A stretch of DNA of 21,062 nucleotides from a virus, in UHGV virus genome UHGV-1684449. One strand, given 5' to 3'. Made by a program: the position numbers and the translations under genes. Of this stretch, positions 647 through 16,568 are shown in pieces (the stretch's first letter is position 1; every line of letters starts with the position of its first letter). The notes under the pieces are model-generated. The model saw only the letters and a program-made list of their open reading frames with translations. It was not told the origin of the DNA and did not search any database.

Positions 647-701
647 TCGCCTATTCATAACTAACAAAATAAGTAAACACTAACCACAAAAGGAAAAACA
701 C

Positions 702-1787: not shown

Positions 1788-2320
1788 ACCGCTGACAGCA
1801 TACACAATCAATTACCGCTGATAGCATATCGAGAGTTTATCTCACCGCTCACAGCATACTTTACTCGATTTTTTACCGCTGACAGCATACTTAAGACATT
1901 GCATGAATAATGTGTACCGGTATGGGTATAACCAGAACAAAATTACCGCTGGCAGCATACGAAGGTCTGACATATACCATTAATTACCGCTGATAGCATA
2001 TCCAAACAAAAATTCCTCAATAAAACACCGCTGACAGCATACGTTCTATCAGGGAGTAGCAGGCAATAAATGCCTTTCACTACAAGCAATCAGCGCAATA
2101 GCAATAGAATGTTAGTGAGCGCAAACCTATATGGAATGCACTCTTCGAGGTTAGTAACCACTGGGGAGGTATGACAGAGCATTGAGTGGTGATAGATGAT
2201 TTACCGCTCACAGCATACGTTCATCTCACTATACCGCTGGTAGCATATCTTTAACCGTTCACAGCATACTTTTCAGAAAAATAGCCGCTGATAGCATACA
2301 TTTCACCGCTGACAGCATAT
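1788..2320 (+). repeat. Iteron array, 12 copies of a 16-bp direct repeat (consensus ACCGCTGACAGCATAC), incA-like
   Basis: Copies at 1788-1803, 1814-1829, 1844-1859, 1875-1890, 1945-1960, 1986-2001, 2027-2042, 2203-2218, 2233-2248, 2254-2269, 2284-2299 and 2305-2320, all in the same orientation. Variants include ACCGCTGATAGCATAT and ACCGCTCACAGCATAC. Start-to-start spacings are mostly 21, 30-31 or 41 bp. The last copy abuts the stop codon of the initiator gene. Confidence 0.85.
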
Positions 2321-3414
2321 CAAAGCAGTTTGAGACTATTGGAAAGGATCTCAATCATCTTGATATTTTCAGGCGTCAAATTCTGCGAAAGTTCGGTTAT
2401 CTTGTTGATAATGTTCTGTTTGGCATCAATTTCCCCAGCTTTCTCATCTGGTTTTTTGGGTTCGATGTCTTCAGGTTTTGGCGGTGCGACTTTGAGTTTT
2501 GGATTGCGGCTGTGAATCTGGATATAGATCGACCGCCCACGCTTAATCTCGCTGTATTCGAGATAGCCCAAATCTTGGAGAGCTTTTAAGCCGTTACGTA
2601 TAGTCTGATTCTGCGAGCTGACATTCCTGCTACTCAAATTGAGTCGCGCACGCAATCGAGCAAGCGATACCGGCGCAGGCTTGGTTGGAAGACTTTCGAT
2701 GAAGGTGTACAGAGCCTGTGCTGTTTCTTTGCGTGGTAGCTTATTGATAACCTTTAACTGCAAAAGAACCTTATGGTCAAAGCGATATAGTTCGGCCAGC
2801 TTCGGTTCTGCATAGAACACCACCGTATCTTTCTGCTCGTTGTAGTCCACGCTATTGATGAGGTGCACCATCAGAAGCGAGATCTTGTTAGAGCCGTCGA
2901 CGTTCTTTTCTTCATACGTTCTCTGGAAAGACAGAGTTGTACGCATGATCTTCAAAAGACTGTTTGTAAGCCGGTCGCGGAGTGTTTTGCGGATCTGTGA
3001 CGATGGATAGCCACAAAACTTCGCAAATTTCGTGATGCTTAACTCGACACGACCGTTAGGTTCGCCGTATTCTGCCAGCGAACGCACAACGCCCACCCAC
3101 GTTTTGAAATCATGATCCATGTCGAGACGAGGACCGGTTATCTTGATATCGGAATAGCCTTCAGAACGGGCTACTTCGAGCTGGACAAGCTCCTTTGAAG
3201 CATCGATCTCATTTGGCTTGTTACGTTTACTGTATTTTGTTCCCTTAAGCGTGGGGACGAACAACCCCAGTCGCATCAACGCAATTGGTTGGACTGTATT
3301 GTTGCTATTAGGGACAAGTTCCCCTGTGTACAATTCAAGGGAACCTTCTTCAAAGTTGTCGATGTTATCTTCTACTTCTTTGTTATTTTTACCTTTTTTA
3401 TTTTTTGTGGACAT
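2320..3414 (-). CDS. repA: Plasmid-type replication initiator, RepA-like (P1 RepA / Rep_3-like), 364 aa
   Basis: Minus-strand ORF flanked on both sides by iterons. Segments NSNNTVQPIALMRLGLFVP, DIKITGPRLDMDHDFKTW, ALYTFIESLP and IHSRNPKLK match my recollection of P1 RepA-family initiators. Start chosen at the internal ATG (3412-3414, MSTKNKKG...) because the track's longer 404-aa ORF runs through the upstream iterons. Confidence 0.75.
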   Translation of the reverse strand: MSTKNKKGKNNKEVEDNIDNFEEGSLELYTGELVPNSNNTVQPIALMRLGLFVPTLKGTKYSKRNKPNEIDASKELVQLEVARSEGYSDIKITGPRLDMDHDFKTWVGVVRSLAEYGEPNGRVELSITKFAKFCGYPSSQIRKTLRDRLTNSLLKIMRTTLSFQRTYEEKNVDGSNKISLLMVHLINSVDYNEQKDTVVFYAEPKLAELYRFDHKVLLQLKVINKLPRKETAQALYTFIESLPTKPAPVSLARLRARLNLSSRNVSSQNQTIRNGLKALQDLGYLEYSEIKRGRSIYIQIHSRNPKLKVAPPKPEDIEPKKPDEKAGEIDAKQNIINKITELSQNLTPENIKMIEILSNSLKLL

Positions 3415-3434
3415 GTGGACACCTTTGTCATTCA

Positions 3435-3536
3435 ACCGCTGACAGCATACTTGATTTGCCGCTGACAGAATACCAAAAACAGTTGGCAGCATACGGTGAA
3501 CCGCTGACAGACTATCAATTACCGCTGACAGCATAC
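3435..3536 (+). repeat. Upstream iteron array, 5 copies of the same 16-bp repeat, origin/incC-like
   Basis: Copies at 3435-3450 (ACCGCTGACAGCATAC), 3458-3473 (GCCGCTGACAGAATAC), 3479-3494 (ACAGTTGGCAGCATAC), 3500-3515 (ACCGCTGACAGACTAT) and 3521-3536. Spacing is 23, 21, 21, 21 bp, about two helical turns. They sit directly upstream of the initiator start codon. Confidence 0.8.
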
Positions 3537-4502: not shown

Positions 4503-4522
4503 ATAGGTATATACTTACTTAT
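4503..4522. promoter_or_regulatory. Copy of the recurring 8-4-8 palindromic motif (ATAGGTAT-ATAC-TTACTTAT)
   Basis: Intergenic, about 110 bp upstream of the sbcD-like gene. Confidence 0.4.
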
Positions 4523-9186: not shown

Positions 9187-9206
9187 ATAGGTAAGTGCTT
9201 ATCTAT
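9187..9206. promoter_or_regulatory. Copy of the recurring 8-4-8 palindromic motif (ATAGGTAA-GTGC-TTATCTAT)
   Basis: Intergenic, between the RuvC-like gene and nrdA. Confidence 0.4.
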
Positions 9207-9212
9207 TAACAT

Positions 9213-9251: not shown

Positions 9252-11567
9252 ATGATAAGCATCGTAAAACGTAACGGCCAAACAGAGCCGTTATCCGAAG
9301 AAAAATACAACCGCGTCGTAATGTATGGCGTAGAAGGCATTCGTGGTGTAAGCGCATCCGCTGTAGCAATGGGAGCTGCGGCCAGCATTTTTGATGGGAT
9401 TACCACCAGCCAGTTGCATGAGGCTTTGGTTAAATCTGCCGCTGATTTGATCTCACCAGAAGCACCAAATTACTCACAGGTGGCTGCCCGCCTGAACATT
9501 TTTAAAATCCGCAAAGATGCCTTCGGTCGTTACGACTATCCGAACTTCTACCAACACATTGTCAAGAACGTTAACAAGGGCGTTTATGACAAGGATTTGC
9601 TGACACATTATTCGTTTGAAGAGATCGAAGAACTCGGCAATTACATTAAGCCGAAACGTGACGATCTTTTTGGCTATGCAGCTACGGTGCAGTTGCAAAG
9701 CAAATACCTCGTTCAAAACCGTGTTACTGGTGAGATTCATGAGGGGCCGCAACATATCTATATGCTGGTAGGCATGTGTCTGTTCCAGAATTGGGAAGAC
9801 GACTGCGCTGGCAAAACACGTATGGAGATGGTCAAAGGTTTCTATGACGTTACAAGTACGTTCAAACTGTCTCTGCCCACACCAATCATGGCCGGCGTCC
9901 GTACTCCAACCCGTCAGTTCTCCAGTTGTGTGCTGATTGAGTCTGGCGATAGTCTGAAAGGGATTAGTGCAGCTTCAGCCGCAATTATCGACTACGTTTC
10001 ACGTCGTGCTGGAATTGGTATTGGTTTTGGCCGTATCCGTGCGCTGGGCAGCGAGATCCGCAATGGTGAAGCCACCCATACCGGAGTTATTCCATTCCTG
10101 AAGCATTTCCAGACGGCTGTTAAATCTTGTTCGCAAGGTGGTGTTCGTGGTGGCGCAGCAACAGCGTTTTACCCGATCTGGCATCTTGAAGTTGAAAGTC
10201 TGCTGGTGGTGAAAAATAACCGTGGTATTGATGAAAACCGCGTTCGCCATCTTGATTACGGCGTCATGAGTAACCGTCTAATGTACCGTCGACTCGTCAG
10301 AAGCGAGAACATCACTCTGTTCAGCCCGCATGATGTGCCTGATATGTACGAAGCCTTCTTCACAGACCAGGATCTGTTTGAAAAGCTGTACCATAAATAC
10401 GAAGCCGATGATTCAATTCGCAAGAAGTCAGTGTCTGCCATTGAGCTGTTCTCATCTCTGATGCAGGAACGAGCGTCCACGGGCCGAATTTATATTGCGA
10501 ACGTCGATCATATTAATGAGCATGGCGCTTTCATTCCTGCTCTTGCACCTGTCCGCCAGTCAAACCTGTGCATGGAGATCACTCTACCCACTCGTCCACT
10601 GGCATTTACCGACGACCCGAACGGTGAGATCGCGCTATGCACTTTATCCGCTTTTAACCTCGGAGCCATCCGTTCACTGGAGTCTCTTAAAGAGGTGGCG
10701 TTCTATGCCGTTGCTGCACTGGATTCGTTACTGGATTATCAAGACTATCCGATGGAGGCAGCCGCAGTGCCTGCCAAAGCTCGTCGTAGCTTGGGAATTG
10801 GTGTAACCAACTTTGCTTATTACCTGGCAAAGAATGGCGTTCGTTATTCTGATACCGCTGGCAATAAACTGGTGCATGAAACGTTCGAAGCTATCCAGTA
10901 TTACCTTCTTGATGCCAGCTGCCGACTTGCTGAAGCAAAAGGTGAGTGTGACTGGTTTGAGCAGACCAAGTACGCAATTGGTCAGTTGCCGATCGACCAT
11001 TACCGTTCTTCATTAGACGAAAGTGGCGAAACCAACTTTGAGTTAAAGATGCCGTGGGAAGAACTGCGTGAACGTATTGCAAAATACGGCCTTCGCAACT
11101 CCACACTGACGGCACAAATGCCATGCGAGACTTCCAGCCAGATCACTAATTCCACCAACGGCATCGAACCGCCTCGTGGCCCGGTGTCGGTGAAATCTTC
11201 TAAGGACGGCATCGTTAAGATGGTCGTGCCTGAGTTTGAAAAACTGAAGGAACAGTATGAATACCTGTGGGATATGCCGGACAACCGCGGCTATCTGACA
11301 AAGGTGGCGATCATCCAGAAGTTCTTTGACCAGGCTATTTCAGCCAATACCAACTATGACCCTTCTCGCTTTGAAGGCGATAAAGTCCCAATGATGACGC
11401 TACTGTCAGATTTGCTTCTCGCCTACAAGATGGGAGTTAAAACGCTTTACTACCACAACACCAGAGATGGGGCAGGAAAGCGTGATGACGACGAACCGCA
11501 GAATCCACTGACGCAAGCTGTAGCCGTCGAGCCAGAAGATGAGTGCGACGGAGCCTGCAAAATCTGA
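9252..11567 (+). CDS. nrdA: Ribonucleoside-diphosphate reductase alpha subunit (class Ia)
   Basis: 771 aa with high similarity along its length to E. coli NrdA as I recall it, including LPTPIMAGVRTPTRQFSSCVLIE, SCSQGGVRGGAATAFYP, VRQSNLCMEI, ISANTNYDPSRF and the C-terminal CDGACKI redox tail. Confidence 0.95.
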   Translation: MISIVKRNGQTEPLSEEKYNRVVMYGVEGIRGVSASAVAMGAAASIFDGITTSQLHEALVKSAADLISPEAPNYSQVAARLNIFKIRKDAFGRYDYPNFYQHIVKNVNKGVYDKDLLTHYSFEEIEELGNYIKPKRDDLFGYAATVQLQSKYLVQNRVTGEIHEGPQHIYMLVGMCLFQNWEDDCAGKTRMEMVKGFYDVTSTFKLSLPTPIMAGVRTPTRQFSSCVLIESGDSLKGISAASAAIIDYVSRRAGIGIGFGRIRALGSEIRNGEATHTGVIPFLKHFQTAVKSCSQGGVRGGAATAFYPIWHLEVESLLVVKNNRGIDENRVRHLDYGVMSNRLMYRRLVRSENITLFSPHDVPDMYEAFFTDQDLFEKLYHKYEADDSIRKKSVSAIELFSSLMQERASTGRIYIANVDHINEHGAFIPALAPVRQSNLCMEITLPTRPLAFTDDPNGEIALCTLSAFNLGAIRSLESLKEVAFYAVAALDSLLDYQDYPMEAAAVPAKARRSLGIGVTNFAYYLAKNGVRYSDTAGNKLVHETFEAIQYYLLDASCRLAEAKGECDWFEQTKYAIGQLPIDHYRSSLDESGETNFELKMPWEELRERIAKYGLRNSTLTAQMPCETSSQITNSTNGIEPPRGPVSVKSSKDGIVKMVVPEFEKLKEQYEYLWDMPDNRGYLTKVAIIQKFFDQAISANTNYDPSRFEGDKVPMMTLLSDLLLAYKMGVKTLYYHNTRDGAGKRDDDEPQNPLTQAVAVEPEDECDGACKI

Positions 11568-11572
11568 CATAT

Positions 11573-11600
11573 GGTGGGGGATATCCCCACCTTCTCTTTG
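11573..11600 (+). terminator. Hairpin plus T-rich tract between nrdA and nrdB (terminator or attenuator-like)
   Basis: Stem GGTGGGG / CCCCACC (11573-11579 / 11585-11591) followed by TTCTCTTTG. Confidence 0.4.
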
Positions 11601-11671
11601 ATTTGTAAACCTTGTTTAAACAAATAAGATAACAACTTGTTTAAACACATCAATAAGCAAAAGGAAAACAC

Positions 11672-12814
11672 ATGTCATATTCAACGTTCCGTTTGGGTGC
11701 TAATGATGCAACCAAAGAGCCTATGTTCCTCGGACAATCTGTCAACGTGGCACGTTACGATCAGCAAAAATACCGTGATTTTGAAAAGTTGATTGAACGT
11801 CAATTGTCTTTCTTCTGGCGGCCGGAAGAAGTTGATATTTCGAGCGATCGTATCGACTTCAACACGAAGCTGCGGGACCACGAACGTCACATTTTTCTGA
11901 GCAATCTCCGTTATCAAACGTTACTCGATTCAGTTCAGGGACGTAGCCCAAATGCAACGCTGCTGCCGCTTATCTCTATTCCTGAACTGGAAACGTGGGT
12001 TGAAACATGGTCTTTCTCTGAGACTATCCATAGCCGCAGCTACACCCACATTATTCGTGGCATGGTGGACGATCCGAGCATTGTTTTTAACGGTATTGTT
12101 ACGGATGAAGAAATCATCAACCGAGCGATCAGTATCTCTGCTGAATATGACAGGCTTTATGGGATGACCTGCGAGCGCCAGTCGTTAGGTGAGAAAGAGT
12201 TTGAACGTCTGTACGTAAATGAATATGGCTGGGAGCCATACCCTTTGCACCGTCAGCTTTTCCGCACGTTGGTGTCCATTAATGCGCTTGAGGCGATCCG
12301 TTTCTATGTAAGTTTTGCATGTACGTTTGCCTTTGGCGAACGGAAGTTGCTTGAGGGCAACACCAAAATTATGCGCTTTATTGCCCGTGATGAAGCTCTG
12401 CATTGCGAAGGAACTGAACGCATGATCCGCTTCATGCGTACCGGTCGCGAAGGTTTATTGTGGAAAGAGATTGCTGCTGATGAAGAAAACGTCATTTACG
12501 ACACCATGAAATCAGTCGCCGAACAAGAAATGAACTGGGCAGACTATCTCTTCAAAGACGGTTCGATGATTGGTTTAAACGCGGATATTCTGAAGACCTA
12601 TGTAAAATACCGCACCAATCTGGCTATGAATCGTCTTGGCCTGAAGGCTTTATTTCCAGAAGTTACCACAGATCCGCTGGTCTGGATGAACAAGTGGTTG
12701 TTAACCGACACACTGCAAATTGCACCACAAGAGGCAGAGCAAAGCACATATCTGGTAGGTCAGATCGATTCTACCGTGGATAAGGCTTCTCTAAGCCAGT
12801 TTGCAGACCTGTAA
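11672..12814 (+). CDS. nrdB: Ribonucleoside-diphosphate reductase beta subunit (class Ia)
   Basis: 380 aa, very similar to E. coli NrdB as recalled: [68 protein letters not shown] and RDEALH. Preceded by the leader AAAAGGAAAACACATG. Confidence 0.95.
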
Positions 12815-12891: not shown

Positions 12892-13761
12892 ATGAACTTT
12901 ACCAAACTGACTGACCACCTGAAACTTGCCACCGATCGACTCATTGGATTTAAGCCAGAACCATATGAGTTGCATGAAGGTCATGGTGTAGCTACTGAAA
13001 GTATTTACAAGATGGTCGATCAGTTTCATGAACTCTTCCAGCATCCGAGACGCGTTATGCCGACACCAGAGCTGCTTCGTCTCCGTGCAAGCCTGATTCA
13101 TGAAGAAGCTGTAGTGGAAGGTATTCCAGCCGCAATGAATGGGGATATTGAGCAACTGCTGGATGCAATGGCCGACTTTTTATACGTTGGTGTTGGTACG
13201 ATGGTCGCCATCAAAGGTGGTATTTCTACCGGCATGACCTATTACACGCAGGAACAGAGCATTGATCGCTTTATGCAGACAATTTTTGTGCCTGGTAACA
13301 CTGTTTTCGATGATATGGCAATGCCATTTCAGGAAGCTCGTGAGGCGTCATGTATGCTCGAAGAGCTGGCAGATAAACTTGAGAACAAGACTGTTAAGGA
13401 TTCTGAGCTGATTCAGGAACTGCGCCGTGTAATGAACAAAATCTATGTGGCGTGCATGATGACCTATCGACTGGCTGATTTCCTCGGTATCAATGTCGTC
13501 GAGCTGGTTGGCGAAATTCATCGGTCCAACATGACAAAATTATGGCCTGCAGATGCCGAAGAGCGTCGCCATGCTGTGGCCAACTGCAAATACGACTCTT
13601 CTGACCTGGGATTTCGCCATGCTGATGGCACCGATAAGATGATCGGTTTTCGAATTTCCGATGGAAAGATTCTGAAGTCTCCAACCTATAGTGATGTCGA
13701 TTTATCCTCCTTTGTTGAGCAAGCTAAAGCCTCAGCAATGTACGGAATGATCAAAAAATAA
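12892..13761 (+). CDS. Putative MazG-like nucleoside triphosphate pyrophosphohydrolase
   Basis: HEEAVVEGI...DIEQLLDAMADFLYV is an E-x2-E ... E-x2-D pattern typical of all-alpha MazG/HisE-type pyrophosphatases. It lies within the nucleotide-metabolism cluster. Assigned from pattern only. Confidence 0.45.
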   Translation: MNFTKLTDHLKLATDRLIGFKPEPYELHEGHGVATESIYKMVDQFHELFQHPRRVMPTPELLRLRASLIHEEAVVEGIPAAMNGDIEQLLDAMADFLYVGVGTMVAIKGGISTGMTYYTQEQSIDRFMQTIFVPGNTVFDDMAMPFQEAREASCMLEELADKLENKTVKDSELIQELRRVMNKIYVACMMTYRLADFLGINVVELVGEIHRSNMTKLWPADAEERRHAVANCKYDSSDLGFRHADGTDKMIGFRISDGKILKSPTYSDVDLSSFVEQAKASAMYGMIKK

Positions 13762-13830
13762 TTGTAGGTAGTTATCTATCTGTGTATATTGCGTTGGCGC
13801 GTTAAATTTCTGAAACAACTATTCGTTTTT

Positions 13831-13856
13831 GGTGGCCTATGGCCACCATTTTTTTA
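13831..13856 (+). terminator. Rho-independent terminator
   Basis: Stem GGTGGCC / GGCCACC (13831-13837 / 13841-13847) with a TAT loop, followed by ATTTTTTTAT. Confidence 0.65.
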
Positions 13857-13932
13857 TCTATCTGGCCTTGTTCCCTCAATAAATGTAAACTCACTTAATT
13901 AATAAGTGGTTACTTATCTTTGTGAGGTTTTT

Positions 13933-15036
13933 GTGTCACTCCTTTTGAATCGTGAGCATACGAACGGTCAGGTAACAAACGCATCGTATGCAAAAGTTAT
14001 TGAGACGGTGCTTAAAAGCGGCGTGCAGGCTGATGATCGCACAGGCACTGGTACTTTAAGCACCTGCTACGTTCCCTCTTACTACATGCTTACTGGTGGG
14101 ACTGTGCCGCTTATTTCTGGAAAGGCGGTAAATCTTAAGCCACTGCTTGTCGAACTTGAGTGGTATCTGAAAGGCACGGGCAACATCCAATTTCTCAAGG
14201 ATAACGGCGTTAAGATTTGGGATGCATGGGCCGATGAGAATGGCGATTTGGGGCCGGTTTACGGTAAGCAGTGGCGTCGATGGGAAGATACCCGCATCGT
14301 GAGCCATAGTGAATATCTGAGCAAGATCGATACTTTCCGTGAACGCGGGTACAAAGTCGAGGGATACCTGGGTATCAGTGAAGATCGCGTAGTGCTGTCC
14401 CGTGAAATCGATCAGCTACAGCGTATTGTCGATACACTGCGCACGAACCCCACCGATCGTCGTATCATGCTTAACGCATGGAACGTAGGCGAGCTTGAGG
14501 ATATGAAACTGCCACCTTGCCACTTTGTCTTCTCTTTGTGGAGTCGTGAGCTTGATTTTGAAACCCGTTTAACGATGGCAACTGACATTGGTCTTCAACA
14601 CAGTCGCCTCGGTTATGAGTCTATCTACACCAAGATGCTATACGATCTGGAGATGGACGGCAGTGTTACTGAAACTGAACTGGATGAACTTGGAATCCCC
14701 AAACGCATCCTCAACTCCTGCCTCGTACAGCGTAGCGTAGACACTTTTGTTGGTATGCCATTCAATATTGCTGGCTATGGCATTCTCACTCATTTTCTCG
14801 CGAAGATTACGGGTCACATGGCCGGTGCATTTGTACATTTTGGCTTTGACGTGCATTTGTACAACAACCACATGGAAGGTGTGTGTGAGCTAATGAAACG
14901 ACAGGCTCCAGAGCATTCAGATCCGGTCGTTATTTTCCCTCATGAATGGTCTGAGCTGGATGATTTCAAATGGGACGATATTCTGATTCTTGGCTATGAC
15001 CCTCTACCGTGGATCAAGGTTCCAGTGGCGGTGTGA
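13933..15036 (+). CDS. thyA: Thymidylate synthase (ThyA family) with internal insertions
   Basis: Conserved ThyA motifs DRTGTGT, GPVYGKQWRRW, DRRIMLNAWNVGELEDMKLPPCH (catalytic Cys), QRSVD...PFNIAGY and the C-terminal GYDP...IKVPVAV. The track ORF begins at GTG 13906; I prefer the in-frame GTG at 13933 because GAGG at 13924-13927 gives a better ribosome-binding site. The start is uncertain. Confidence 0.85.
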   Translation: MSLLLNREHTNGQVTNASYAKVIETVLKSGVQADDRTGTGTLSTCYVPSYYMLTGGTVPLISGKAVNLKPLLVELEWYLKGTGNIQFLKDNGVKIWDAWADENGDLGPVYGKQWRRWEDTRIVSHSEYLSKIDTFRERGYKVEGYLGISEDRVVLSREIDQLQRIVDTLRTNPTDRRIMLNAWNVGELEDMKLPPCHFVFSLWSRELDFETRLTMATDIGLQHSRLGYESIYTKMLYDLEMDGSVTETELDELGIPKRILNSCLVQRSVDTFVGMPFNIAGYGILTHFLAKITGHMAGAFVHFGFDVHLYNNHMEGVCELMKRQAPEHSDPVVIFPHEWSELDDFKWDDILILGYDPLPWIKVPVAV

Positions 15037-15037
15037 T

Positions 15038-15451
15038 ATGGCAAGAGGTATGTATGTCTTATGCGAAATTGAAGGTGTGCTGGCAAATACCAGCCATCGT
15101 AAATCTGTATCTGACGCGGATGCAGGCCAGCTCATTGCCGGTGATGAACTCATTTTCCCCACCAGCCGTATGTTGCGTGGTTTTGCTCGCTCAGGGGCTG
15201 AAGTGGTGCTTATCAGTAGCCGCTCTGAAACTCTTGAAGCGCCCACTAAACGATGGCTGAAAGATTTTGGCGTTGATTACGACTGGCTTCATCTCGTACC
15301 GAATGGCACCAGTTATGAGAAGCATATTAAGCGCACATTAGCGGAGCATAAAGGCGATCTGCTTATCGCTGCGCTGGTGCACGATCCTCGACTCCGTGCC
15401 GCTTTAGCTGACTCTCATCATAGACCGGTCATCTATGAGGTGAGCAAATGA
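15038..15451 (+). CDS. Hypothetical protein, possibly a HAD-like phosphatase fold (137 aa)
   Basis: ORF between the thymidylate synthase and dihydrofolate reductase genes. YVLCEIEGVL resembles HAD motif I (hhhhDxDGxL) but with Glu at both Asp positions; VVLISSRS and GDLLIAALVHD could be motifs II and IV. Start trimmed to the first ATG after the thyA stop. Confidence 0.4.
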   Translation: MARGMYVLCEIEGVLANTSHRKSVSDADAGQLIAGDELIFPTSRMLRGFARSGAEVVLISSRSETLEAPTKRWLKDFGVDYDWLHLVPNGTSYEKHIKRTLAEHKGDLLIAALVHDPRLRAALADSHHRPVIYEVSK

Positions 15452-15924
15452 AGATGATAGCTGCTGTTGGCCGTAACTATGAGATCGGCATAGCGAACGA
15501 ACTGCCCTGGCGTTGTTCTACCGATCTGAAGCTATTTAAGAGACTCACCAAAAACGCCACTGTCGTTATGGGGCGTAAAACGATGGAAAGTCTCAAACGC
15601 CCTCTTCCAGAGCGTCATAACCTCGTTTTGACGCGCTCTCATGGCTTTGTACCAAATGGATTCTACCCTGCTGGTGTGGATGATGTGTTGCGATTACCAG
15701 AGCCTGTGTGGGTGATTGGCGGGGAACAAATTTACTCGCTATTCATGCCGCATGTTGAAGAGATTTGGCTCTCCCACATCGGCGTTGATGTGCCAAACGC
15801 CGATGCATTCTTCCCGGCAAGCATGATGCGTAATTTAGGCTTTGTGCCTGTTGAAACAGTTTTTACCCAACGAGCCAGCGAGGAAGAGCCTGGCTTTTCG
15901 CAGATCGTATACAGAAGGTCGTAA
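15448..15924 (+). CDS. folA: Dihydrofolate reductase
   Basis: 158 aa. MIAAVGRNYEIGIANELPW, VVMGRKTMESLKRPLPERHNLVLTR and VWVIGGEQIY match the DHFR family pattern (E. coli FolA: MISLIAALA...MPW, [34 protein letters not shown]). GAGGTG ribosome-binding site; start overlaps the upstream stop. Confidence 0.85.
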   Translation: MKMIAAVGRNYEIGIANELPWRCSTDLKLFKRLTKNATVVMGRKTMESLKRPLPERHNLVLTRSHGFVPNGFYPAGVDDVLRLPEPVWVIGGEQIYSLFMPHVEEIWLSHIGVDVPNADAFFPASMMRNLGFVPVETVFTQRASEEEPGFSQIVYRRS

Positions 15925-16568
15925 TGGATTACCGGATTGGGATCACTGGTGCTCAGGGCAGTGGGAAAACAACCCTGGCAAAATATATCGACAAACATTA
16001 CGGAATCCCTTACGTGGATGCTGGTGTCGGAAGTTTGATGAGCCGACTCGGTGTTCGAGTAGGTGAGTCTATGCCTCTATATGAGCGGCTTCAGATTCAA
16101 ATGGAAATAGCAAAGCATATAGAGCTACTTACGCGTGGTGTTGAAGGCTTTGTTATCGATCGCACACCTGCTGATGTTATGGCCTACACGTTGGATTTGG
16201 TCGGCCATACCAATGAAGATCGATGTATTGAGTTAGCCCTCGATATCGAAAAGTTTTGCCACAAAACTGCTATTTCAAACTTTAACGCCATTGCTGGCCT
16301 ACGCCCGGGGGTCGCTCTCTCAGAGCGAGATTACTTGCGGTCACAACGAGCATCATTAGACCGTCTGTATGTCGCTCGTATTGATGCGTTGATGTGCGGG
16401 GAACTGACAAAAATTCACCTGCATCCGCAAAGGGGGGATCTGCAAACCTTCGTCGTTTCCAACCGATATCGCACGGTTGAAGCAAGAGCCAGATCAGTGA
16501 TGAGAATGCTAGATAACGCTGTAGAAAAGATAGAAAACCGGTTCTGTGGCCGAGTGACCGTTCATTAG
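15924..16568 (+). CDS. P-loop NTPase, putative nucleotide or nucleoside kinase
   Basis: Walker A GITGAQGSGKTT at the N-terminus; size and genomic context are consistent with a dNMP kinase-like enzyme. Translationally coupled to the upstream gene (TAATG). Specific function not established. Confidence 0.4.
   Translation: MDYRIGITGAQGSGKTTLAKYIDKHYGIPYVDAGVGSLMSRLGVRVGESMPLYERLQIQMEIAKHIELLTRGVEGFVIDRTPADVMAYTLDLVGHTNEDRCIELALDIEKFCHKTAISNFNAIAGLRPGVALSERDYLRSQRASLDRLYVARIDALMCGELTKIHLHPQRGDLQTFVVSNRYRTVEARARSVMRMLDNAVEKIENRFCGRVTVH

Follow-up and report, generated by a model that had tools for sequence, protein, structure and literature searches.

Few enzymes are as conserved and as well studied as thymidylate synthase, which is also a drug target, and a gene for it with an unusual layout raises the question of whether the enzyme itself is unusual. 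Such a gene, thyA, lies in a 21,062-nt stretch of the virus genome UHGV-1684449 (the whole of this stretch is called the window below). Its product is 367 aa long, as compared to 264 aa for E. coli ThyA, carries two extra segments within the conserved core and starts at a codon other than ATG. Our main reading, to which we assign a probability of roughly 85%, is that the gene encodes a functional folate-dependent ThyA of an SSU5-like phage-plasmid, in which the inserts would be inherited, folded add-ons that leave the core chemistry unchanged.

Genomic context of thyA

Over 4 kb around thyA, identity is 98–99% to the Escherichia phages CMS-2020a, PhiR41_1, and Cyrano; for Salmonella phage SSU5 it drops to 76%. 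Other genes of the window encode a Rep3-type replication initiator, SbcCD, a class Ia ribonucleotide reductase, a DnaQ-like exonuclease, and a Dam methylase. This gene content and the relatedness to SSU5-type phages therefore identify the window as part of an SSU5-like phage-plasmid. Near-identical phage-plasmid genomes in public databases already list the gene as thymidylate synthase.

Judged by domain matches and collinearity, thyA is part of a nucleotide-supply block that comprises NrdAB, a MazG-like protein, ThyA, a HAD-like protein, dihydrofolate reductase (DHFR), and a P-loop protein. The neighbors of thyA in this block are as follows:

9252–11567 and 11672–12814, plus strand: nrdA and nrdB, class Ia ribonucleotide reductase (within 9252–12814)
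12892–13761, plus strand: MazG-like nucleotide pyrophosphohydrolase, 289 aa (PF01503, E 1.3e-8; phrog_671, E 1.1e-47)
15038–15451, plus strand: small HAD/PNKP-phosphatase-like protein, 137 aa, with its ATG 1 nt past the thyA stop
15448–15924, plus strand: dihydrofolate reductase, 158 aa (PF00186, E 2.9e-34), overlapping the preceding gene by 4 nt
15924–16568, plus strand: P-loop AAA_28 protein, 214 aa (PF13521, E 2e-9)

The nrdAB assignment is based on the open reading frames, on the annotation of the collinear SSU5 and PhiR41_1 genes, and on Pfam matches of the collinear Photobacterium genes. The HAD-like protein matches PF25109 at E 8.9e-5, which is below the curated cutoff, and phrog_5387 at E 5.5e-90; its gene holds this position in SSU5, pJN2-26, and Photobacterium as well. 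DHFR is encoded by the second gene past thyA, 412 nt downstream, within a translationally packed block. The final gene of this tightly packed thyA block encodes the P-loop AAA_28 protein, which appears weakly kinase-like, with a weak match (E 2.9e-10) to phrog_2107 “thymidylate kinase”. The nucleotide-supply block is kept from Enterobacterales to Photobacterium and was seen in SSU5, pJN2-26, and Photobacterium.

Reading frame and translation start

The frame is open over positions 13906–15036 of the plus strand, and the form beginning with the GTG at 13933 is the version annotated in SSU5 (SSU5_081, 1104 nt) and PhiR41_1. Read from this codon, the protein has 367 residues, in agreement with the length of about 367 aa given in the first-pass annotation of this DNA, made by a model from the sequence alone. 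Three in-frame codons of start type precede the conserved core: GTG at 13906, GTG at 13933, and TTG at 13945. The earlier claim that all in-frame starts are GTG therefore overlooked the TTG but was correct in that no usable ATG exists: the first in-frame ATG, at 14086 (residue 52), lies within the fold, downstream of R36.

The upstream region was compared across four SSU5-like genomes (the window, PhiR41_1, SSU5, and pJN2-26). The features relevant to the start are listed below:

13830–13858, plus strand: terminator-like hairpin (TGGTGGCC-TAT-GGCCACCA) with a T-run, 8 pairs of which 6 are GC
13924–13927, plus strand: Shine-Dalgarno GAGG, 5 nt 5' of the start codon, invariant in 4/4 genomes
13933–15036, plus strand: thyA coding sequence, 367 aa, GTG start, TGA stop

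The hairpin stem and T-run are kept in all four genomes, and this element closes the MazG-like gene and marks the beginning of the thyA unit. Upstream of the start, the alignment contains indels whose lengths are not multiples of three. The start column itself varies, with GTG in the window, ATG in PhiR41_1, and TTG in SSU5 and pJN2-26. The conserved terminator, the invariant GAGG, the varying start column, and the non-triplet upstream indels together mark 13933 as the true start, and the four-genome alignment thus backs the GTG proposed earlier. PhiR41_1 encodes a protein 99.5% identical to the window ThyA, yet with an ATG start, and the non-ATG start accordingly reads in this alignment as a variable trait at the strain level.

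Family membership and predicted activity

The protein belongs to the ThyA family: it matches PF00303 (Thymidylat_synt) at E 3.3e-79 with 266.2 bits against a threshold of 24.3, exceeds the TIGR03284 equivalog cutoff (222.7 bits vs. 108.35), matches phrog_160, and has the ThyA fold. The scores for two narrower models, the E. coli-type equivalog NF002497 (264.2 bits vs. a cutoff of 327) and the Burkholderia-type equivalog NF010393 (137.7 bits vs. 576), stay below their cutoffs; the protein is therefore a divergent ThyA and a member of neither narrow group.

All 17 catalytic or binding positions checked match E. coli ThyA (Ec). The nucleophile Cys196, encoded by the following codon, and His197 correspond to Ec C146 and H147:

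14518–14520, plus strand: TGC codon of the catalytic nucleophile Cys196, in the PPCH motif (E. coli Cys146)

The four-arginine site for the dUMP phosphate is complete (R36, R267, R176, and R177, equivalent to Ec R21, R166, R126, and R127), as is the set Q266, R267, S268, and D270 (Ec Q165, R166, S167, and D169). Also retained are E74, W96, W99, Y110, H308, and Y310, the counterparts of Ec E58, W80, W83, Y94, H207, and Y209, and the uracil-specifying asparagine (N278, Ec N177). At the C-terminus the PVAV lid is kept, with the conservative exchange of E. coli I264 for V367. The alignment thus agrees with the original observation that the catalytic Cys, the Arg, Ser, and Asp of the QRSxD motif, and the Asn of PFNIA are retained.

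Because this catalytic machinery is fully conserved, we infer that the protein follows the usual ThyA mechanism as a dimer. Cys196 would attack C6 of dUMP, whose phosphate would be bound by R36 and R267 together with R176' and R177' of the partner subunit, while N278 would read the uracil. 5,10-Methylene-tetrahydrofolate would give the carbon and then a hydride, yielding dTMP and dihydrofolate, and the latter would be recycled by the DHFR encoded two genes downstream.

Some of the same data could also be read differently. Scores under the narrow ThyA equivalog cutoffs would suit a ThyA-fold pyrimidine hydroxymethylase acting on dUMP or dCMP, with the inserts altering how the methylene intermediate is handled and a modified base being made. 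Hydroxymethylases do occur among phage ThyA homologs, a point raised in PMC7824862, and a MazG-like pyrophosphohydrolase adjoins thyA, as in some base-modifying phages. We regard this reading as very improbable, given that the TIGR03284 cutoff is passed and that E74, W96, W99, Y110, D270, and the C-terminal lid are all kept. The retained Asn278 also speaks against it, since dCMP hydroxymethylases have Asp in place of this uracil-specifying residue; in the T4 enzyme this is presumably Asp179, as implied by the D179N entry 6L18. An enzyme of the dCMP hydroxymethylase type (T4 gp42) is excluded by the asparagine and by the fold ranking. For a dUMP hydroxymethylase (SPO1 gp29 type) we know of no agreed sequence determinants, and such an activity appears unlikely in view of the intact lid and the adjacent DHFR, an enzyme needed only where dihydrofolate is produced. 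A normal dUMP-to-dTMP synthase is the most likely activity, given the retained catalytic residues, the ThyA-type fold, and the nearby DHFR gene, two positions downstream.

Position and predicted fold of the two insertions

A phmmer comparison with E. coli ThyA split the protein into three blocks: residues 18–118 (Ec 3–102/4–103), 156–203 (Ec 107–154), and 261–367 (Ec 161–265). The segments between them are as follows, with net lengths taken from MAFFT and hmmalign alignments:

14287–14397, plus strand: insertion 1, approximately residues 119–155, net +34 aa, between Ec W101 and R107
14542–14712, plus strand: insertion 2, approximately residues 204–260, net +51 aa, in the hairpin Ec 155–158

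Insertion 2 thus sits between the strands equivalent to Ec 149–155 and 158–167. The values of 34 and 51 aa are close to the roughly 30 aa between GKQWR and DRRIM and 50 aa between PPCH and QRSVD that had been estimated in the first-pass annotation.

AlphaFold2, run on a 36-sequence alignment, returned a model with a pLDDT of 93.4 and a pTM of 0.92. In this model, insertion 1 consists of strands 117–124, 141–146, and 152–159 and helices 125–130 and 132–137 (DSSP), with pLDDT of 94–97 in 10-residue blocks over residues 121–160. Insertion 2 is predicted to form three helices (209–225, 231–242, and 247–253) at a pLDDT of 92–98. The first-pass annotation had suggested extra surface domains. Both segments are indeed compact modules in the prediction (pLDDT > 90), and a surface location fits their insertion sites. 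Insertion 1 would be a small beta/alpha module and insertion 2 a three-helix module that branches off the core where the dimer interface has its perimeter, the two decorating a conserved core whose chemistry they would leave unaltered.

In a Foldseek search, no solved structure spanned the whole model (best query-normalized TM 0.71). Among predicted viral proteins, a BFVD entry reached a query-normalized TM (TMq) of 0.85 and the thymidylate synthase of phage 201phi2-1 reached 0.83. Sequence searches of Pfam and PDB with insertion 2 alone gave no match, and those with insertion 1 alone gave only a sub-threshold Sedlin_N match (E 0.016). Residues 110–161 of the Burkholderia thailandensis ThyA structure 3V8H align to insertion 1 with zero net gap and with motifs in common; a cellular enzyme thus provides a solved counterpart of insertion 1. 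For insertion 2, these searches yielded no apparent solved counterpart.

Distribution of the insertions

Both insertions, of 34 and 51 aa, are present in all SSU5-like homologs examined. The hosts of these elements include Escherichia, Salmonella, Klebsiella, Enterobacter, Raoultella, Citrobacter, Providencia, Morganella, and Xenorhabdus, and the contigs are mostly 95–120 kb long. Past the SSU5-like elements, the closest annotated proteins are the thymidylate synthases of SPN3US-type jumbo phages, with 37–41% identity. SPN3US itself, a 356-kb jumbo-phage contig, and Photobacterium also have both insertions.

When 1.84 billion representatives were searched with a profile and the matches were profile-aligned, this gave 114 well-aligned representatives of 50%-identity clusters. 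Both insertions occur in 64 of them, insertion 2 only in 25, and insertion 1 only in 11. A strict coupling of the two, hinted at by the first 120 homologs, is rejected by these 25 and 11 cases. The alignments likewise give no sign of one joint domain, as the inserts occur independently and insertion 1 is also found in a bacterial ThyA.

Insertion 2 carries the signature [ST]xx[LM]xxxER ... [LM]Dxxx[IV]PxRxL, which in the window reads SRELDFETR ... LDELGIPKRIL; its R212 and P256 are kept in no fewer than 80% of the 139 homologs that bear the insert. The segment aligns with those of SPN3US, the jumbo-phage contig, Photobacterium, and Ectothiorhodospira. This shared signature points to a single inherited module and not to gains that occurred several times independently.

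All four distant loci inspected have a phage or phage-like context: SPN3US, the 356-kb jumbo-phage contig, an SSU5-like module on a 2.03-Mb replicon of Photobacterium ganghwense, and a prophage-like region of Ectothiorhodospira. Both insertions are thus common to a large ThyA subfamily carried mainly by phages, which is unnamed and is defined here, and neither is peculiar to the window gene. The first-pass annotation had stated that its proposal would fall if the apparent insertions proved common in a known ThyA subfamily with ordinary activity; since so many ThyA relatives share them, this is largely what we found.

Selection on the inserted segments

Among the window, SSU5, and pJN2-26, synonymous differences are saturated (pS 0.6–1.0). 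The pN values are 0.02–0.23 for insertion 1, 0.11–0.16 for insertion 2, and 0.06–0.12 for the core, and pN/pS is 0.04–0.23 for insertion 1 and 0.14–0.20 for insertion 2. By this measure, both inserts are real protein under purifying selection.

Group I introns are known in phage thymidylate synthase genes such as T4 td, which makes it reasonable to consider that the extra segments are in-frame remnants of mobile elements (a group I intron, an intein, or a homing-endonuclease relic) or an artefact of annotation or assembly. The very large, unexplained insertions that other metagenomic ThyA representatives carry at site 1 could be taken in the same sense. The probability of such an origin is nevertheless close to negligible. 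An Rfam search over positions 13700–15200 gave zero matches at E up to 1, and the segments, 111 and 171 nt long, fall short of the size of a group I intron or an intein. Their GC content resembles the remainder of the gene, both are predicted to fold with high confidence, the same architecture recurs in dozens of independent genomes, and purifying selection at the protein level is strong while synonymous sites are saturated. No intein or endonuclease Pfam domain was found in the inserts or in the large-insert relatives: ten relatives whose insertions or extensions are very large matched only the ThyA domain in Pfam, with no sign of inteins or endonucleases at site 1. An intron, intein, or artefact origin is rejected on the absence of Rfam matches and of such Pfam domains, the purifying selection, and the gene-like GC content.

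Comparison with known thymidylate synthases

The window ThyA shares its fold with the E. coli enzyme (264 aa; PDB 2TSC, 1AN5, and others), with a Foldseek TM of 0.94 on the E. coli chain and 44% identity over aligned columns. It differs by an N-terminus 15 residues longer and by the +34 and +51 aa inserts. The B. thailandensis enzyme 3V8H (PRK13821/NF010393-type, ~323 aa) has the insert matching insertion 1 but is only 28% identical to the window protein and lacks any sequence corresponding to the 51-aa insertion 2.

By sequence, the jumbo-phage relatives are SPN3US gp037 and its Erwinia and Cronobacter relatives. SPN3US gp037 shares the sites of both insertions and the insertion-2 signature with the window protein, although the insert lengths differ, and the genes next to thyA in jumbo phages are unlike those in the window. 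The predicted structure of the 201phi2-1 protein (B3FJL1) superposes over the inserts at a TMq of 0.83 and 28% identity. Many metagenomic representatives have a third large insertion at the site used in Lactobacillus casei, and the length of the 201phi2-1 protein (457 aa) hints that it may have one as well.

Lineage-specific surface insertions in the otherwise invariant ThyA core have precedents: the L. casei enzyme carries a 50-aa insert, and eukaryotic enzymes carry inserts of 12 and 8 aa. The L. casei insert is located at Ec 87–89, a site that is empty in the window ThyA (0 extra residues at Ec 87–90). Judging from the human and L. casei sequences, the eukaryotic 8-residue insert lies at the insertion 1 site, between QWR and DQL, and the alignment block obtained with human TS is consistent with this. 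To our knowledge, neither the L. casei nor the eukaryotic enzymes have an insertion in the hairpin past the catalytic Cys. T4 td, which is not known to have a module of the insertion-2 type, contains a group I intron, unlike the window thyA, for which Rfam gave no match. Phage T4 pairs its ThyA, Td, with the phage DHFR Frd, which boosts dTMP supply (PMC7725336). The window resembles T4 in that it also pairs a phage ThyA with a phage DHFR.

A literature search returned nothing on either insertion, no report of activity, complementation, or structure for any insert-bearing member, and no biochemical characterization of the jumbo-phage ThyA relatives.

Possible roles of the insertions

In human thymidylate synthase, the pocket that receives F59' lies on the perimeter of the monomer–monomer interface and is lined by Y202 (PMC9831607). 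The equivalent of Y202 in the window protein is W203, and insertion 2 begins with the next residue, S204. This adjacency to an interface-perimeter residue therefore makes it plausible that the module lies at the dimer edge, where the three helices could extend the dimer or make it self-specific. Our preferred guess is that insertion 2 gives extra buttressing or extension of the homodimer.

A broader proposal is that the inserts are docking or specificity modules on an enzyme that keeps ThyA chemistry: they might recruit ribonucleotide reductase, DHFR, the MazG-like protein, or a kinase into a dNTP-synthesis complex, in line with the partner interaction suggested in the first-pass annotation, or insertion 2 might extend the dimer interface and so restrict pairing to self, excluding host ThyA. 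In its favor, both inserts are predicted to be folded and are under purifying selection, insertion 2 emerges beside the interface perimeter, the subfamily has a phage or phage-plasmid context at 4/4 loci, and within SSU5-like elements the gene always lies inside the nucleotide-metabolism block. Td and Frd of T4 take part in multi-enzyme assemblies, and the T4 dNTP-synthesis complex is the proposed analogue. Such Td/Frd assemblies are mentioned in PMC7725336. The proposal is weakened by the independent occurrence of the inserts (only insertion 2 in 25 representatives, only insertion 1 in 11) and by the different genes around thyA in jumbo phages, and the presence of insertion 1 in the cellular Burkholderia ThyA argues against a phage-specific partner for that insert. 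On balance, we consider it rather unlikely.

More specific, and more doubtful still, is the idea that insertion 2 pairs with its twin across the two-fold axis to form an enlarged, self-exclusive interface, or that it docks onto a phage dNTP-synthesis complex. Since ThyA active sites span both subunits, a self-exclusive interface would block mixed dimers with host ThyA. If true, either version would explain the phage or phage-plasmid context at the four loci, from phage-plasmids to jumbo phages.

Work on the insert-bearing branch could show how phages customize a core enzyme for stability, for self-association as opposed to pairing with host subunits, or for complex formation. The window itself adds little to this, as the features flagged in it are family traits and all the evidence points toward ordinary ThyA chemistry. 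The wider interest is limited to the mainly phage-borne insertion-2 module, which is uncharacterized in the literature found.

Further elements upstream of thyA

One more invariant element lies between the hairpin and the start codon:

13910–13917, plus strand: 8-mer TTACTTAT, just 5' of the ribosome-binding site

The 8-mer is identical across the four genomes, with divergent flanking sequence, and has three copies in the window vs. 0.62 expected by chance. A motif scan led us to reject it as a recurring promoter or operator motif of the window, and a sigma-70 scan upstream of thyA found no forward-strand promoter. A hairpin comparable to that at 13830–13858 is also present 5' of the Photobacterium homolog.

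Sequence elements upstream of thyA

Between the terminator hairpin at the end of the MazG-like gene and the thyA ribosome-binding site lies an 8-mer, TTACTTAT, which occurs three times in the window against 0.62 copies expected. The window also contains two TAAG...CTTA-type palindromes, both short and imperfect:
13910-13917, TTACTTAT, upstream of thyA
669-676, minus strand, TTACTTAT
4515-4522, plus strand, TTACTTAT
9190-9210, palindrome upstream of nrdA
13896-13920, palindrome upstream of thyA

An alignment of the upstream regions of the four SSU5-like genomes (the window, PhiR41_1, SSU5 and pJN2-26) revealed that the 8-mer is unchanged in all of them, embedded in divergent intergenic DNA. The same alignment demonstrated that the left arm of the thyA-upstream palindrome is not kept in the relatives, and on this sequence comparison the palindrome is probably not an operator. 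A scan of the window found no sigma-70-like promoter on the forward strand upstream of thyA.

Other genes in the window

Three further gene products of the window are as follows:
2320-3534, minus strand, protein of 404 aa carrying a Rep3-type replication-initiator WH1 domain
12892-13761, MazG-like protein of 289 aa
15038-15451, HAD/PNKP-phosphatase-like protein of 137 aa, between thyA and the DHFR gene

The WH1-domain protein is consistent with plasmid-style maintenance of the phage. In the MazG-like protein, the PRA-PH/MazG domain is limited to residues 42-106, leaving approximately 180 C-terminal residues without an assigned domain. The phosphatase-like HAD protein within the dTMP-synthesis block is found in all SSU5-like elements examined as well as in Photobacterium, and may be a nucleotidase.

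Distant loci

Two of the four distant ThyA loci whose gene neighborhoods were inspected are:
Photobacterium ganghwense CP071326.1, 802763-819824, full SSU5-like module inside a 2.03-Mb replicon
Ectothiorhodospira shaposhnikovii JAJMLZ010000004.1, 45278-58252, prophage-like region encoding a ThyA with insertion 2 only

The gene order at the Photobacterium locus is SbcC-like, NrdA, NrdB, MazG-like, ThyA, HAD-like, DHFR, AAA_28, exonuclease, methylase and RNase H. Finding the full module within this replicon points to an SSU5-like element, integrated or co-integrated, in a species of Vibrionaceae, far outside Enterobacterales. The Ectothiorhodospira region also encodes SbcCD, a RecA with an intein-splicing domain, dUTPase and an RNase_T exonuclease.

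Large insertions in other ThyA proteins

In many metagenomic ThyA representatives, the site of insertion 1 holds a very large insertion of 120-390 aa; others have 60-95 aa inserted at the Lactobacillus casei site, E. coli positions 87-89 (P0125, P0132, P0130, P0165, P0184, P0214 and similar). Pfam analysis of ten representatives with very large insertions or extensions detected no domain besides ThyA, and both sites appear to be insertion hotspots for unexplained domains. One homolog, P0019 (505 aa, on a 2.4-kb contig), aligns to the window ThyA at 76% identity, with 73% of the query covered; its Pfam ThyA match ends at profile position 182, and it is possibly a fusion, a frameshift or an assembly artefact.
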